The position numbers were made by a program, and so were the translations under genes. Of a DNA stretch of 64,000 nucleotides, positions 8,601-27,893 are shown in pieces. Below the pieces are notes generated by a model that saw nothing but the letters and a program-made list of their open reading frames with translations, was not told where the DNA came from and did no database searches. This DNA comes from an uncultured Acholeplasmataceae bacterium (GTDB lineage: Bacteria; Bacillota_I; Bacilli_A; Acholeplasmatales; Acholeplasmataceae), in contig CAUTMP010000003.1 in assembly GCA_963539755.1 (NCBI GenBank), positions 9,058-73,057 of the forward strand, given 5' to 3'. Position 1 is the stretch's first letter; every line of letters starts with the position of its first letter.

Positions 8601-9399
8601 AAGTTTAATATTTAGGAAAATTTTTGTCTCACTGGCCATAATTTTAATTTATATCCCGGTGGTTTTTGTCATCATTTTTTCATTTAACTCCAAAAAATCA
8701 CTAAAAGAACTCTCTGGTTTTTCAGTTAAGTGGTACCAGGAGTTGTTTTTGCGCCCTAACTTAACGCAGGCCGTAATTTATACCATTATTATTGCCGTAA
8801 TTTCTACAATAATTTCTACAATTATTGGCACACTGGCCGCAATTTCTATTGCGAATTTTTCCAAAAAACGAAAAGATGCTATTTTCTTTTTTAACAACAT
8901 CCCAATAATTTCGCCAGACATTATTTTTGGGCTTTCTTTATTTTTCTTTTTTACCGCTTTTAAAATTCCGCTAGGCTTTTTTTCAATCTTACTTGCCCAC
9001 ATTGCTTTCTCGGTTCCTTTTGTGCTTGCTGCTGTTTATCCAAAAATCTTGACTTTGGATAAAAACATCTTAGACGCAGCATATGACTTGGGATGCGGAT
9101 ACTTTACCGCGATTTTCAAAATTTTAGTTCCGCAAATCAAAGAAGGTATACAAGCAGGTGCCGTGATTGCCTTTACCATGTCTTTTGACGACTTTATTAT
9201 TTCTTACTTTGTTTCAGGTAGTTCAAACATCCAAAACATCTCAATATATCTCTATACCTTAAAAAGAGGACTAAACCCTTCAATCAATGCACTTTCTACT
9301 TTGATTATCTTGGTAATAATGATTAAAGTGGTTTACGACTACGCAACTGCACTGATTAAAGTCAGAAAAGAAAGAAAGGAAATTACACACAATGTTTAA
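8587..9399 (+). CDS. potC: spermidine/putrescine ABC transporter permease
   Basis: 270 aa, multi-TM, with EAA-like loop LDAAYDLGCGYFTAIFKILVP. Operon context supports the call. Confidence 0.85.
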   Translation: MKDNRSLIFRKIFVSLAIILIYIPVVFVIIFSFNSKKSLKELSGFSVKWYQELFLRPNLTQAVIYTIIIAVISTIISTIIGTLAAISIANFSKKRKDAIFFFNNIPIISPDIIFGLSLFFFFTAFKIPLGFFSILLAHIAFSVPFVLAAVYPKILTLDKNILDAAYDLGCGYFTAIFKILVPQIKEGIQAGAVIAFTMSFDDFIISYFVSGSSNIQNISIYLYTLKRGLNPSINALSTLIILVIMIKVVYDYATALIKVRKERKEITHNV

Positions 9400-21604: not shown

Positions 21605-21839
21605 TTTTCAACTTTTGTTTTTATAGCCGTTTGCTATATATATATATGAATTGATACAGTAAATAGCGTTTTTAGTGAAAGACAGATGAGGTTTTTAACT
21701 GTAAAACACGCTAATTATGACATATTTAAGGAAACTAATGTTGTCAATATTAAACCATCTAAAATTTTACACAATCACTTTATATAATTTATATAAACAT
21801 ATCGCAATACTTTTGCATAACTTACACAAGGAGAAATAC

Positions 21840-24800
21840 ATGCAACCTGAACAAAATATGCAGTTTAATATGCTCCGCAAGAAAAGAAAAGGATTTTTAA
21901 TCCCAGCTTTATTTATTCTTGCATTTACTTCACTTATTTTACTTGTTATCTTTTTATTTTCACACCCTACAGTTTATTTTTCTAAAAATAGTGGTTTCAC
22001 TGAACACGACGCTGTTAAGGCTGGAAAAAATAAACTACGCTTTGTGGTGCCAGAAACTATAGATACAACAAAGTCTACTTTCATTTCTGTTAGAAAAGAA
22101 TGGTTCACAACTAGCAGACTAGGAACAATTGTTGACATTAAGGCAAAACCAGGTAAATACTTAGCCCTTGACTTTACAGACCGTCAACACGACTCTGAAG
22201 TTTTTACTATCTACACTAAGAACTGGTTTGGAATTAAAAAGCAGTATGACGTAATTGTTGATTACTCTAACTTCCTTCGTATCTTTTTCCCTGAGTCACA
22301 TGATGGTGCGATTCCTCGCAAACCAGAAATTCTTCCATATTCTAAACTACAAACTGAACACAAACACAAATACGAAGAACTTTACAAAATCAAAAGTTTC
22401 TATGCATACGACAAAGACGGAAAAATTGCTCCAGAGCCTATTCACAGAAGAGATGTTTTTTCTAAAGACATCGCTCAAGGCCGTGCATTTATTGTTAACA
22501 ACAGCACGCAAATTTCTTTAGTTTATGATTTCTTACTGCCAGGTATCTTTAAAAAACAAGCACAAAAAACTCAAGTTTACGACCTTGTTGACAAAACTGT
22601 TGGTAATGCAAAAACTCTAGACCCTGAAAAACAAGGACACGAAATTCAGTTTAATACTCCTCCTTTCTATATTTCTAAGTTCCTTGGTTGGTACTACATT
22701 GACCCAACTGGCAACCGAGTTGACTTAAAACCAGGTGAAGAGTTTAATATCCCCACTTGGGTAAAATCTGAACTTAGACTAATTGCTAAATATGATATTA
22801 CTGCTGATATAGATAAGTTAGCTCCAGCCCTTGACAAGCAAGGTCTGGTTGCGGTTTCTTACTTTGATGGCGTGCAAAGAGTATTTTTAGATATTGTCAA
22901 GAGAGGCACACCACTTCGTGAACACATCTACAATAAAGACGGATATGTTTATGAAGGTTGGTATAAAGACAGCGCTTTCACAAAAAAAGTAGACTTTAGT
23001 CAAGAAGTTGCAACTACTCATATTTCGCTTTACTTAAAGTCAATTTCTCAAAACCAACCACAACCCGAAAAACCAACTAAATATCACACTATTACTTTTA
23101 AAACTCCAGATGGTGCATCTCAACTTTCTCCAGCAAAAGTAGCGCGCGACCAAAAACTTGACGCAAATTATGCAGCGCCAAACCGAGTTTCAAAAGTTTA
23201 TCCAGACGGCAAACTCGAAGAGCTTGACTATTGGACAATTTGGGATCCTGTTAATAACCAAGACACAGGTGTTAAGTTTGACTTTAATACTCCAATTACC
23301 AGCGACCTTGTACTGTATGCTCATTTAAGACCATATAAAGCACCAGACTCAGAACGTCCAGTAAATTTCAAAGTACTTGACCATATTCAAAACCAAACAC
23401 TTTACGACAAAACTTTAACTGCAGTTAACAACAAAATTCAAGACGCAGATAAAGCAGAAATCAAAGGTATTTTGGGAAATGCTCCTGCTGATGTTGAAAC
23501 TCCAATGGGCACATATCGCTTCAAAGGTTGGTATTTAAATGGTGACATCAATTCTCCATTTTATATAGACGACGCACTTCCTAAAAACATAAAACGTTTT
23601 GAAATTCACGCAGTTTATGACTTTGAGCCAAACGACAAAGTACCAAACCCACAAGATCCTGACAACCCACTTCCTCTAGACCCAAGTTTAGTTAAACTAA
23701 CTTTCTTAACGCCTGAGCGCACTGTGCTTGCAGTTCAAACTCAAGAAAAGGGCAAGGCATACGCGGGAACTCTGCCTACTATTTCTAAACTAGGCTACGT
23801 ATTTAAACACTGGGCTTACTTTGAAGGCAACGAAGTTAAAGACCAATTTGATACTACTGCTGTTTTAAATGAGAACAAGGTGCTATATCCTGTGTTTGAA
23901 AAAGATCCAAACGCAAACCTTGAAAACGAAGAACTCAACACAGTTAAGATCTACAATCCACTACTTAAATCAACTCAAGTCTTAAAAGTTAAAAAAGGTG
24001 AACTACTTGGAGTAGACACAAACGCCTACACCACTACTATTGAAGACAAAGAATACGTGTTTGACAAGTTCACTAAAGAAGATGGTTCTACTTTTGATCA
24101 CTTAACTACGCAAATTACTAAGGACTTAAACTTTACTGTTAATCTAAAAGAAAAAGTGCTTGATTGCTTTAAGTCAATTGACACAAAAATTAGTGATCCT
24201 GTTCAAGGAAAAGTTTTATATGAAGGCAAAATCCGCGTCAAAGATGGCCAAATTTACGCACCAGACCGCGCGAAACTACAGGCTATCCTTGACACAGTTG
24301 GCGCAGACATTGACGGCGCTATGGGTAAACATCAATTTAAGGGCTGGTATTTAGATGGAGACACTAATTCTCCGTTTACAGTTAACGACCAAATTGATCA
24401 AAATACTGCTCGTCTAGATATTCAGGCAGTTTATGACTTTGAGCCAAACGACAAAGTACCAAACCCACAAGATCCTGACAACCCACTTCCTCTAGACCCA
24501 AGTTTAGTTAAACTAACTTTCTTAACGCCTGAGCGCACTGTGCTTGCAGTTCAAACTCAAGAAAAGGGCAAGGCATACGCGGGAACTCTGCCTACTATTT
24601 CTAAACTAGGCTACGTATTTAAACACTGGGCTTACTTTGAAGGCAACGAAGTTAAAGACCAATTTGATACTACTGCTGTTTTAAATGAGAACAAGGTGCT
24701 ATATCCTGTGTTTGAAAAAGATCCAAACGCAAACCTTGAAAACGAAGAACTCAACACAGTTAAGATCTACAATCCACTACTTAAATCAACTCAAGTCTTA

Positions 24801-27800
24801 AAAGTTAAAAAAGGTGAACTACTTGGAGTAGACACAAACGCCTACACCACCACTATTGAAGACAAAGAATACGTCTTTGATAAGTTTACAAACAAAGACG
24901 GCTCTGACTTTGACCACTTAACAACTGCGATTACAAAAGATCTTGAGTTAACTGTTCACTTAAAAGAAAAAGAACTTGCTGGCTTTAGGCAAATTGACAT
25001 TAAAATTATTGACCCTGTTCAAGGTAAAGTTTTATTTGACGGAAAAGTGCGTGTTAAAGACAACCAAATATATGCACCAGACCGCGCAAAACTACAGGCT
25101 ATCTTAGACACAGTTGGTGCAGACATTGACACTGTACTTGGTAAATACCGCTTTAAAGGTTGGTATTTAAGCGGAGACATCAACTCTCCGTTTACAGTTG
25201 ACGGCAATTTAGATCCAAACACTACTAACTTAACAGTTAAGGCAGTTTACTACTTTGAAGATAACAATAAAGTACCAAATCCAGATAACCCAAGTGACCC
25301 ACAACCTCTTGACCATGCTCTAATTAAAGTTACTTTCCTTTCAGACAGCTACTCAGTTATCTCTGTTCAAACAAGTAAAAAAGGAAAAGTTTTTGACGGA
25401 ACCCTTCCAAATGTTGAAAAACGTGGCTACATCTTTAAACACTGGGTTTACTTTAAAGCAGGAGTAGTTGGCTCTATTTACAACGAACAAGACGTGCTTA
25501 CTGAAAACACAGTTCTGTATCCTGTCTTTGAAAAAGATCCAAGCGAACCTGAGCCAAAAAATACTGCTAAAGTCACTATGCAAAGTGAATTGCTTGGACA
25601 AAGTGAACATAGGTTTGTCAAAAAAGGTACAAAACTAGATTTAGATCCTCAACAATTTAATACTAAAGTTGGCAAATACTTGTATAAGTTCAAACGTTTC
25701 GTTGACGAAAACGACAATACTTTTGACTACAAAACTAAGCCAATTTTTGAAGATATTACTTTAAAAATAGAATACGAAAAAACTGAGCCGAAGGCCAAGT
25801 ACACTATTAAACACGTATTTGAAGGGGTAGAAGGACAAATCCCTGAAACAACTCAAACTGTAGAAAAAGAAACTACTGTGGGCAGTGAAATAACTGTAGA
25901 CAGCAGTGATGGTCTGCCTGGTCTTGAACACGGCTTTGATTTAGTTGACTCAACTGAAACTAAAGTAGTTAAAGCAGATGGTTCTACTGAGTTTATCTTA
26001 AACTACAAACGAAAAGAGTTTACCGTAACTTACCAAGCAAACTACCACAATCAATTCCCAGGAACTGCGGTTTCAAATGAACCTCAAACTCACAAAGTTA
26101 AGTATCAAGAGAAAATCAAAGAACCAAACCCTGCACCAAAACTAGAGCGACATGGCCGCACATATACCTTTAAACACTGGCAACTTGAGTCTACTATGAA
26201 CGGAGTTTATAGTGAGCAAAGTCCTTATAACTTCAACACCAGAGTTAACCGCAATGTTGATTTAGTGGCTTACTTTGAAGAAAAAATTGAAAAAGTTAAC
26301 TACAAAATCGTACATATGCTAGAAAAACAAGGCGAAGACAGTGCTCTTAACGGACAATACGACAGAATCGAAGAACTTCAGCAAGATAAAAAAGTAGAAG
26401 ATGGCGCTACTTACCAAGATTACTCAGCACTAGACTCTAACTTATACGAAAAAGATTTAACACACCCAGATAATCTGCTTAATGCACAGCTTAATACTGG
26501 CGACAACACTACCGAAGTTCGCCAATACTATAAGTTAAAAGAAACTACTGTTAACTTCCAAAAAACTGCAGGTATTGAAAGTTTTGATTCTGCTGAAACT
26601 ATCGTGGTAAAGAAAACCCGCAAAATTGACTTACCTAACTACAACTTAAAGGCAAACTACGAGTTTACAGGTTGGAGTTTAAGTCAAAACGGACCAAGTC
26701 AGGCTAAGTTTATCGCAAGTGGCGACAGTATGGATATTTACGCGAACACTAGAATTCTTGAATCTAGAGTTAAATACACTATTTTAACTCAAAGAGCAGA
26801 TGGTGGATATGACACAACTTACGAGACTAAAAAAGCCTTAATTGGTTCAGTTCACACAGCAAGTTATGCAAATCCAAATAGTTCTATTTACCATGACCCT
26901 CGTTTCAACCCTACTCAATTTACTGTGAGCGCAAATGAAGACGAAAACCAAGTCACTGTAACAATTGACAGAAATGTCTACACAGTTACTTTTGAAGTTA
27001 TTGGTCATTCTGGTCAAATCCTGAATAGAGTAATTAGGCATGGTGCTACAATTGGAGCGATTGATGAAAGCCAGTTTTCAGTAGATGGAAATGGTATTAT
27101 AAAGACTGAACTAGATGGTATAGAAAAAACTAAGGAAGAAATTGAAAGTTTCTTAGTTCAAAAAAACCATAAAGTAACTTTGCATATTGGCAGACTTATT
27201 AAGAAGTTTGGTAAATACCCACAAACTAGAGTTGACAATCCTGCAGGAATTCGTCATATAAAAGACGAAGTACACGAACTTAGGTTTAACTCAAAAGGCA
27301 ATAACTACACTATGCAGTTTACTCGCAGTTACTGGCAAGACAACGCCGACAATAAATATGAAAAATACAATGGTCAATACTTTAAAATTGAAGATGTTAT
27401 TTTTGTTAAAATTCCTAAACTAAACACCTGGTATACCGACAAAATAATTGACTTTTCACCTTTTAACATTAGTAACATTAATTATCCTGATGATGCGAAA
27501 CCTGAGCGCTCTATTTTTAAATCACTTGTTGAAGATATTGGAAAAGTTTTAGGCGATGAAGTTCACATGCCTACTTATGATAGCGGCGATTTTAAATTTA
27601 AACCAGCCTATGACGCAGGTATACAGTCTCGGTTATTAAAAGAATCAACTGACTATGCCAAAGCAATTTTAGGTAGTGAAGATCGTAATATTAAAAAATA
27701 TCGTGGTTTTGATTTAACCCCTATTGTTGTTGAAGGAAATAGCTTTTCTTACCGAAAAAGGTACCACCAGCACTGGTGGCTCGCTACTCAGATAGACTAC

Positions 27801-27893
27801 CCTACTGCTCTCGTTAACCTCGTCAGAAACGACAACATCTTGGGCAGTGCTGGCGTGTCCAATGTTTTCGGTGTAGTGGTTTGCATTAGGTAG
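21840..27893 (+). CDS. giant membrane-anchored surface protein A (2017 aa): Flg_new-like and MucBP-like repeats, shared N- and C-terminal modules
   Basis: Start moved to ATG 21840, 6 nt after AAGGAG. The ORF-track start at 21717 has no RBS and adds a non-conserved extension. One N-terminal TM (FLIPALFILAFTSLILLVIFLF) and many Y.F.GWY...LYA.. modules. Ends VFGVVVCIR. Paralog of 28284-32837. Confidence 0.85.
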   Translation: MQPEQNMQFNMLRKKRKGFLIPALFILAFTSLILLVIFLFSHPTVYFSKNSGFTEHDAVKAGKNKLRFVVPETIDTTKSTFISVRKEWFTTSRLGTIVDIKAKPGKYLALDFTDRQHDSEVFTIYTKNWFGIKKQYDVIVDYSNFLRIFFPESHDGAIPRKPEILPYSKLQTEHKHKYEELYKIKSFYAYDKDGKIAPEPIHRRDVFSKDIAQGRAFIVNNSTQISLVYDFLLPGIFKKQAQKTQVYDLVDKTVGNAKTLDPEKQGHEIQFNTPPFYISKFLGWYYIDPTGNRVDLKPGEEFNIPTWVKSELRLIAKYDITADIDKLAPALDKQGLVAVSYFDGVQRVFLDIVKRGTPLREHIYNKDGYVYEGWYKDSAFTKKVDFSQEVATTHISLYLKSISQNQPQPEKPTKYHTITFKTPDGASQLSPAKVARDQKLDANYAAPNRVSKVYPDGKLEELDYWTIWDPVNNQDTGVKFDFNTPITSDLVLYAHLRPYKAPDSERPVNFKVLDHIQNQTLYDKTLTAVNNKIQDADKAEIKGILGNAPADVETPMGTYRFKGWYLNGDINSPFYIDDALPKNIKRFEIHAVYDFEPNDKVPNPQDPDNPLPLDPSLVKLTFLTPERTVLAVQTQEKGKAYAGTLPTISKLGYVFKHWAYFEGNEVKDQFDTTAVLNENKVLYPVFEKDPNANLENEELNTVKIYNPLLKSTQVLKVKKGELLGVDTNAYTTTIEDKEYVFDKFTKEDGSTFDHLTTQITKDLNFTVNLKEKVLDCFKSIDTKISDPVQGKVLYEGKIRVKDGQIYAPDRAKLQAILDTVGADIDGAMGKHQFKGWYLDGDTNSPFTVNDQIDQNTARLDIQAVYDFEPNDKVPNPQDPDNPLPLDPSLVKLTFLTPERTVLAVQTQEKGKAYAGTLPTISKLGYVFKHWAYFEGNEVKDQFDTTAVLNENKVLYPVFEKDPNANLENEELNTVKIYNPLLKSTQVLKVKKGELLGVDTNAYTTTIEDKEYVFDKFTNKDGSDFDHLTTAITKDLELTVHLKEKELAGFRQIDIKIIDPVQGKVLFDGKVRVKDNQIYAPDRAKLQAILDTVGADIDTVLGKYRFKGWYLSGDINSPFTVDGNLDPNTTNLTVKAVYYFEDNNKVPNPDNPSDPQPLDHALIKVTFLSDSYSVISVQTSKKGKVFDGTLPNVEKRGYIFKHWVYFKAGVVGSIYNEQDVLTENTVLYPVFEKDPSEPEPKNTAKVTMQSELLGQSEHRFVKKGTKLDLDPQQFNTKVGKYLYKFKRFVDENDNTFDYKTKPIFEDITLKIEYEKTEPKAKYTIKHVFEGVEGQIPETTQTVEKETTVGSEITVDSSDGLPGLEHGFDLVDSTETKVVKADGSTEFILNYKRKEFTVTYQANYHNQFPGTAVSNEPQTHKVKYQEKIKEPNPAPKLERHGRTYTFKHWQLESTMNGVYSEQSPYNFNTRVNRNVDLVAYFEEKIEKVNYKIVHMLEKQGEDSALNGQYDRIEELQQDKKVEDGATYQDYSALDSNLYEKDLTHPDNLLNAQLNTGDNTTEVRQYYKLKETTVNFQKTAGIESFDSAETIVVKKTRKIDLPNYNLKANYEFTGWSLSQNGPSQAKFIASGDSMDIYANTRILESRVKYTILTQRADGGYDTTYETKKALIGSVHTASYANPNSSIYHDPRFNPTQFTVSANEDENQVTVTIDRNVYTVTFEVIGHSGQILNRVIRHGATIGAIDESQFSVDGNGIIKTELDGIEKTKEEIESFLVQKNHKVTLHIGRLIKKFGKYPQTRVDNPAGIRHIKDEVHELRFNSKGNNYTMQFTRSYWQDNADNKYEKYNGQYFKIEDVIFVKIPKLNTWYTDKIIDFSPFNISNINYPDDAKPERSIFKSLVEDIGKVLGDEVHMPTYDSGDFKFKPAYDAGIQSRLLKESTDYAKAILGSEDRNIKKYRGFDLTPIVVEGNSFSYRKRYHQHWWLATQIDYPTALVNLVRNDNILGSAGVSNVFGVVVCIR
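23610..25790 (+). repeat. in-frame tandem array with an exact 816-bp (272-aa) period: copies at 23611, 24427 and 25243
   Basis: 23610-24034 and 24426-24850 are identical base for base (425 bp). The remainder of units 1 and 2 is about 75-80% identical by eye. The third unit is diverged and partial. Confidence 0.95.

Follow-up and report, generated by a model that had tools for sequence, protein, structure and literature searches.

A large predicted surface-protein gene of an uncultured Acholeplasmataceae bacterium carries two adjacent repeat units that are identical over exactly 425 bp and diverged over the remainder of their length. The gene lies in a 64,000-nucleotide stretch of contig CAUTMP010000003.1 (assembly GCA_963539755.1, contig positions 9,058 to 73,057), which is called the window here and to which all plain coordinates refer. 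The 425-bp duplicate is most probably (at roughly 0.85) the footprint of a recent non-reciprocal gene conversion within the gene, between two old neighboring 816-bp units, A and B. The center of the unit (positions 130 to ~555) would have been homogenized repeatedly and separately in different lineages, with the diverged head and tail of the unit mostly escaping. The mechanism is an ordinary and well-known one, and the finding opens no new mechanism; the locus is a new and unusually clear example. It provides a clean natural case of partial-unit concerted evolution within one bacterial gene, visible in ~15 wild lineages of one uncultured genus, and the case includes a fixed 5' limit, variable 3' ends, and captured products of contraction and re-expansion.

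The exact duplicate and its 816-bp period

Direct sequence comparison showed that window positions 23610-24034 and 24426-24850, both on the + strand, are identical at 425 of 425 bases and in frame with each other. The two copies of this block are bounded by mismatches at 23609/24425 (C/G) and at 24035/24851 (T/C). An earlier note, made from the letters of the sequence, had described a base-perfect duplicate of this length whose first mismatch was the T/C pair, and the comparison confirms it. The array that holds the block has a period of 816 bp, or 272 codons, and runs in frame within an open reading frame (ORF) at 21717-27893. Repeat finding on the window returned three copies at spacings of 816 and 816, in agreement with the period given in the note; the unit boundaries that the note had placed at 23611, 24427, and 25243 mark an arbitrary phase of this real period. 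Tandem Repeats Finder reported no array because its longest period, 500, falls short of 816.

The limits of the units were set by domain limits (Pfam matches on pieces and an AlphaFold2 (AF2) model) in the period-816 register. Unit A then occupies 23481-24296 (816 bp, 272 codons), unit B, which also follows the mismatch maps, occupies 24297-25112 (816 bp), and an older, incomplete unit C occupies 25113-25810, all on the + strand. The perfect block corresponds to unit positions 130-554. Unit C is ~60-70% identical to B over its first ~440 nt and is later recognizable only at the protein level. In the repeat-finding result, this more diverged third copy showed 62% identity over the 300-nt family and 84% over a 44-nt core.

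Outside the block, units A and B differ at 104 of 391 bp (73% identity). The earlier note had put this remainder at ~370 bp and about 75-80% identity, which is roughly right, but the divergence is not uniform: the figure fits only the 262-bp tail (~79%), and the 129-bp head is ~63% identical. The A-head lies at 23481-23609 on the + strand. Its 3' edge is a fixed 5' limit of the block: in all 11 genomes mapped, the mismatch pattern shifts at unit position 130. How unusual is such a perfect stretch? At the mismatch rate of the flanks, the probability of 425 perfect bases is ~1e-57; with the block divergence of 6-9% measured in the five most diverged relatives, it rises to 1e-11 to 1e-18. Among the exact direct repeats of the 728-kb assembly, the 425-bp block is the longest, and only an inverted 1124-nt tuf repeat exceeds it.

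Probable concerted evolution of the block in the genus

The window's own genome, called G000, has a size of 0.73 Mb in 21 contigs, an estimated completeness of 95.8%, a GC content of ~35%, and genetic code table 11. It belongs to a genus set of 19 species-level genomes, 15 of which, including G000, match the repeat region. The 14 other same-genus assemblies that were compared are metagenome-assembled genomes (MAGs) of ~0.7 Mb, and their orthologues are collinear, with no insertions or deletions in the array. Six further loci were added from other public assemblies, comprising SPAdes-style NODE contigs, MEGAHIT k141 contigs, and the product of another scaffolder.

Mismatch maps of A against B revealed a common design, consisting of a head that is diverged through unit position 129, a block that is similar between the copies from 130 to ~555, and a diverged tail. 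The longest perfect tract measured 461 bp in G002, 425 bp in G000, 422 bp in G008, 396 bp in G001, 366 bp in G011, 295 bp in G014, 258 bp in G015, and 194 bp in P0042. In G012 it continued through the tail to 687-692 bp, and in locus L048 (P0002) it reached 836 bp. The block was 6-9% diverged in G018, G013, G005, P0004, and P0005. The perfect tracts, which thus range from 194 to 836 bp, differ between genomes in their ends and in their sequences. None of them begins upstream of unit position 130, except for a re-duplication in L048. Homology falls to ~60% upstream of this position, and the drop probably sets the fixed 5' limit of the tracts.

The phylogenetic trees separated the block from its flanks. 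In the head and tail trees, the A, B (and C) sequences formed clades that ran across all genomes, with support of 100/100 or 99-100. The C heads formed one group beside the B clade in the head tree (89/81), and B and C heads together split from the A heads at 99/99. Judging from these trees, the A/B duplication predates the genus, because the A and B head and tail clades are common to all congeners. The block tree, on the other hand, contained no A clade and no B clade. In other words, blocks grouped by genome and heads and tails by position: A and B of one genome were sisters in G000, G001, G002, G008, G011, G012, G015, and P0002, each pair on its own branch. Two exceptions were seen in the tail tree. 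The B-tail of G012, where the perfect tract is 687-692 bp long, fell within the A clade, and both tails of P0002 fell within the B clade. The position of these tails marks them as further conversion events.

Synonymous divergence (dS) followed the same partition. In G000, dS between A and B was 0.01 in the block, against 1.64 in the head and 0.97 in the tail. The stretch between the two copies of the block (24035-24425, + strand), which consists of the A-tail and the B-head, carries these high tail and head values against the partner unit and belongs to clades shared by all congeners, and it is recognized on these grounds as an old, unconverted spacer. In the five most diverged genomes, dS between A and B was 1.07-1.77 in the head, 0.23-0.37 in the block, and 0.77-1.42 in the tail. 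The block is younger than its flanks even there, indicating that it had already been homogenized in these genomes in the past. Between species, block dS was 0.09-0.56. The earlier note had taken the mosaic of perfect and diverged stretches as a sign of recent gene conversion or partial re-duplication rather than of a single old duplication, and had proposed a comparison of synonymous divergence. That comparison, run in G000, supports conversion, as does the contrasting grouping of block and flanks in the trees.

The nearest relative and the private substitutions provide further evidence. Between G000 and its nearest sampled relative, 11-12 of the 425 block sites differ, a level similar to that in the flanks. 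About a dozen A/B differences would be expected had the two copies evolved apart since the split from this relative, and none was seen. G000 carries four private substitutions, at unit positions 198, 270, 346, and 347, each shared by its two copies. Among the genomes with long perfect tracts, 14 private sites occur in A and B alike, and four of these genomes have in addition five private sites confined to one copy, mostly near tract ends. In the five most diverged genomes, 36 private sites were found, all in one copy. Taken together, the trees, the dS values, the divergence from the nearest relative, and the private sites form the pattern classically expected of recurrent gene conversion and the concerted evolution that it drives.

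One alternative is that purifying selection acting on the nucleotides keeps both copies in their ancestral state, as an embedded RNA, a regulatory element, or an overlapping gene might require. The occurrence of perfect or near-perfect blocks at the same place in related genomes fits this model, and the earlier note had held that the same perfect block in related strains would imply selection and not recency. The relatives do have perfect blocks in this position, but the blocks are unlike one another in length, in their ends, and in sequence, and the private changes of each lineage sit in both of its copies, which indicates recurrent homogenization and not the conservation of an ancestral block. 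Moreover, 11-50 of the 425 block sites vary between species, at normal dS, an A/B divergence of 6-9% that is mostly synonymous is tolerated in five lineages, and no ORF of at least 100 aa was found on the opposite strand. Purifying selection is therefore a very improbable explanation, and only a block that is invariant across species would revive it. A recent duplication of the whole unit, followed by fast divergence of head and tail under diversifying selection, is equally hard to credit. Surface proteins often evolve fast, and the nonsynonymous divergence (dN) of the head is high, at 0.38. However, head and tail dS are near saturation (1.6 and 1.0), dN/dS is ~0.14-0.23, and the age of the A and B head and tail clades places the duplication before the genus. 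The trees and the dS values already contradict this model.

The earlier note had named either gene conversion or partial re-duplication as the origin of the block. For G000, the first of these fits and the second does not. The spacer at 24035-24425 is orthologous to that of the relatives and still lies between the two blocks, which means that the tract was copied non-reciprocally and was not re-duplicated. A true re-duplication was found in L048 only.

A more serious alternative, although still an unlikely one, is an assembly artefact. According to this model, the two blocks are merely similar, or the copy number is different, and a short-read de Bruijn assembler popped the bulges between the copies and threaded the repeat loop once. 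Several observations favor it and count against gene conversion. Many contig ends in G000 overlap another contig by exactly 55 nt (for example, the end of C3 and the start of C18, or C6 with C1 and C4), showing that the assembly is a k=55 de Bruijn assembly of a short-read metagenome. In 15 assemblies, no A/B mismatch survives that has at least 55 perfect bases on both sides, which is the pattern that bulge-popping would leave. In the relatives G006 and G017, the contigs break off within the block. One study and one pipeline supplied most of the relatives, which hence share any assembler bias. A few isolated true differences may have been erased, so that the presence of private changes in both copies is not fully independent of the artefact, and the copy number is a minimum, as a repeat loop is usually threaded once by the assembler. 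A separate point against gene conversion is that the block in G000 is mostly A-type with B-type patches (at 30 weakly diagnostic sites) and gives no clear donor direction, A to B or B to A.

What decides between an artefact and a conversion tract? Bulge-popping needs perfect anchors of at least k on both sides and erases only sparse differences. The true identity would still be ~98-99% or more, compared to 63-79% in the flanks. Base-perfect identity is thus an upper bound, and the true value could be ~99%. The three-unit layout and the A-tail/B-head spacer were confirmed where the blocks are 8-9% diverged and hence different enough to assemble unambiguously, including in the MEGAHIT contig L055 and in scaffold L054 from another pipeline. 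Sharp tract ends that differ from genome to genome are also not the behavior of an assembler. The mosaic, the tract limits, and the three-unit layout stand independently of the bulge-popping caveat. A practical consequence is that short-read MAGs are broken at this locus, or may smooth it over, and neither repeat number nor exact identity in this family should be taken from such assemblies.

Loss and regain of a repeat unit

Further evidence for recombination at the block comes from variation in unit number. Three units are present in at least 12 assemblies and two in G003, G004, P0007, and P0008, every one of them a metagenome assembly, and the short forms have three different histories. G003, G004, and P0007 are each without exactly one 816-bp unit. 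Their fused unit consists of A-head, block, and B-tail, with the junction inside the block. In a tree of the upstream flank, P0007 was sister to the three-unit G011 (98/99), and G003 and G004 formed a pair of their own (97/94). From these positions, it follows that the two-unit forms are derived contractions; a tree of the downstream flank resolved neither grouping. P0007 was found on MEGAHIT k141 contigs of 49-100 kb. Such contigs are unable to run through a branching repeat, so its short form is not a skipped loop. P0008 represents a different deletion, with another junction, in which the A-head and A-tail are kept and unit B is gone, and it recurs in four samples.

A product of the opposite change was captured in L048, where a fused unit was re-duplicated to give the 836-bp perfect run of period 816. 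At the junction, C-head positions 1-42 meet the A-head from position 43 onward, over only 20 identical bases. Because 20 bases are shorter than any k used in assembly, it can be reasoned that real reads must support this junction. The earlier note had also marked the array as a likely site of unequal recombination and of trouble in assembly. Both expectations are borne out, the first by the block-internal junctions of G003, G004, and P0007 and the second by the contigs of G006 and G017 that break there.

How would conversion and unequal exchange operate at one locus? The identical tract would be the crossover site of unequal recombination, which would remove or re-add one 272-residue unit of three domains. 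Such losses and gains would change the length of a putative protein stalk, a property that may be of importance to the cell. As for the enzymology, we infer that homogenization is probably self-reinforcing, with long identical tracts serving as good RecA substrates and copies that are 6-9% apart converting rarely. The copies fall into two states, perfect over hundreds of bases or 6-9% apart, and this pattern suggests that conversion is favored by identity and rare between drifted copies. G000 encodes RecA in an intact 330-aa frame (412 bits). The only MutS-family gene is that of MutS2, on the minus strand at G000:C5:56772-59090 (L058:709-3027), which matched TIGR01069 at 633 bits (cut-off 400). 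Neither MutS1 nor MutL turned up in the G000 assembly, which is an estimated 95.8% complete. A lack of these two is common in Mollicutes and, given the established roles of the proteins, would make it easier for slightly diverged copies to recombine.

The protein, its family, and comparable systems

The gene at 21840-27893 (+ strand) encodes a giant surface protein of ~2017 aa, as judged by its ORF and translation, by Pfam Flg_new matches, and by orthologues of 2015-2019 aa that begin with MQPEQN. The open frame itself begins at 21717 and runs 41 codons (21717-21839) upstream of the Met at 21840 where the orthologues start. Public gene calls place the start of this protein at no fewer than two other sites, for lengths of 2051 and 2050 aa. 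The protein consists of a basic N-terminal stretch with one transmembrane helix, a constant N-module of ~500 aa, a cassette of Flg_new-like beta domains, and a constant C-module of ~230 aa that ends in GVVVCIR. The C-module had no family match in Pfam or NCBIfam. The hydrophobic helix behind the basic N-terminus was read from the translation, and membrane anchoring and surface location are predicted.

One period encodes three small beta-rich domains and a Pro-rich linker. In the register used here, a unit such as A begins with the end of beta domain 1 and runs through the Pro-rich linker, Flg_new domain 2, and domain 3 into the next domain 1, of which it holds the start. The perfect block, which corresponds to aa 632-773 of P0001, encodes the last strand of domain 1, the linker, all of domain 2, and the first half of domain 3. 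The whole protein matched Flg_new (PF09479) in three stretches with 115.1 bits against a cut-off of 27, and TIGR02543 with 24.2 against 20.95. Domain 2 alone matched Flg_new with 23.9 bits (E 4.4e-5). Domains 1 and 3 alone gave marginal or no Pfam matches, and SHIRT matches were weak and below threshold. An AF2 model of one period had a mean predicted local distance difference test score (pLDDT) of 71 and a predicted template modeling score (pTM) of 0.40, with domains 1 and 3 confident, domain 2 poor, and the inter-domain geometry unreliable. The best Foldseek neighbors of the AF2 domains were InlB B-repeat chains (2y5p), at a template modeling score of 0.65-0.67 normalized to the target, a root-mean-square deviation of 3.3 A, and weak E-values (0.003-0.02, none at or below 0.001). 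Strings of ubiquitin-like or MucBP domains were further neighbors, also with weak E-values. The profile match above cut-off thus places the protein among the Flg_new (Listeria-Bacteroides repeat) proteins, and the superposition of the AF2 domains on 2y5p points to a beta-grasp-like B-repeat fold, a tentative assignment in view of the Foldseek E-values, the low-confidence model of domain 2, and the marginal or missing Pfam matches of domains 1 and 3. Downstream of the array, an older second periodicity of 672 bp (224 codons) was noticed, in which 35-nt stretches at 25865-25899 and 26537-26571 are 74% identical.

Mollicutes are known for size-variable surface proteins such as Vlp of Mycoplasma hyorhinis, Vsa of M. 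pulmonis, and the R1 repeats of P97. Those proteins are lipoproteins built on short repeats (~5-20 aa), and their promoters are often phase-variable. The present gene resembles these systems in belonging to a wall-less relative with a small genome, in the presence of multigene surface families, and in length change by gain and loss of tandem repeats, but its unit is 272 aa of folded domains. A closer parallel for the unit-number variation is found in the Periscope Proteins (SasG/Aap, Rib/alpha C, Sgo_0707 (SHIRT), Esp, and CdrA), surface proteins with highly identical tandem domains in which intragenic recombination varies length (Whelan et al. 2021, PMC8201768). Here, too, a large surface protein carries tandem folded domains, with high DNA identity over part of two repeats, repeat number varies among close relatives, and two- and three-unit forms have their crossover site in the identical tract. 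In contrast to those proteins, near-identity is restricted to two units and, within these, to 52% of the length (425/816), the rest being 63-79% and the third unit ~60% identical; among the relatives, one full 836-bp perfect repeat is reached in L048. The unit is also a three-domain cassette of 272 aa rather than a single domain, and its domains are of the Flg_new/B-repeat (beta-grasp-like) type, with only weak, sub-threshold SHIRT matches. Furthermore, the predicted anchor is an N-terminal transmembrane helix, so that the C-module would be the distal end, a polarity reversed relative to LPXTG proteins. In unit-number variation, and in DNA repeat identity as far as the 425-bp block reaches, the gene appears Periscope-like.

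For the conversion itself, the tufA/tufB genes of enterobacteria are the textbook case of concerted evolution by RecA-dependent gene conversion. As in that system, paralogous stretches resemble each other more inside one genome than across species, orthology is retained in the flanks, and recA is present. The partners here differ from tufA/tufB in being in-frame tandem units of one gene, 816 bp apart, with a tract that covers part of the unit. As a result of this tandem arrangement, conversion competes with deletion and duplication.

The surface-protein family is found genome-wide in G000, with at least six copies of the ~500-aa N-module and at least 14 of the ~230-aa C-module (contigs C2, C3, C4, C7, C8, C10, C11, C12, C15, and C17), and it is large for a 0.73-Mb genome. 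Many of the modules sit at contig ends, and several contig breaks fall in genes of the family. The family is probably central to host or partner attachment, and the repeat array may serve as a marker of surface variability. Different paralogs share two perfect tracts set in 70-80% identical surroundings: an 88-nt tract at window 22608-22695 (C3:31665-31752) and on C11 near 1453, and a 185-nt tract at C2:1955-2139 and on C15 near 2488. These tracts suggest that sequence is also converted between loci.

A wider reading is that the block is part of a family-wide recombination system, in which conversion and unequal crossover among cassettes would generate length and antigenic variation, and copies would be bistable, either identical or drifted beyond recombination. 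This possibility is raised by the at least 14 paralogous giant genes, by the 88- and 185-nt tracts between paralogs, and by the failure to find MutS1 and MutL in the assembly, and it is put forward tentatively, as a rather unlikely one. If true, the family would be a standing generator of surface variation for an obligately host- or partner-attached Acholeplasma-like organism.

Two other sequences in G000 were noted. The tuf gene (EF-Tu) is present in two inverted copies, at G000:C4:18315-19504 and G000:C5:52806-53996, that share 99.7% identity over 1191 bp, including a perfect stretch of 1124 bp. This pair is the longest exact repeat of the genome, a duplicate that is unusual at such a genome size, and it is likely a second case of gene conversion. 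Because of the tuf pair and the two tracts between paralogs, gene conversion seems to be generally active in G000. Contig C21 (2631 bp, minus strand) was considered as a donor or an unplaced copy of the repeat and was rejected, being a paralog fragment with 44% amino acid identity to the unit C region of the window protein. The whole contig is one open frame of 876 aa without ends, and the frame then continues with three ~135-aa repeats (VNYxIKHVFEG...) of a type also present at window ~25850-26900.

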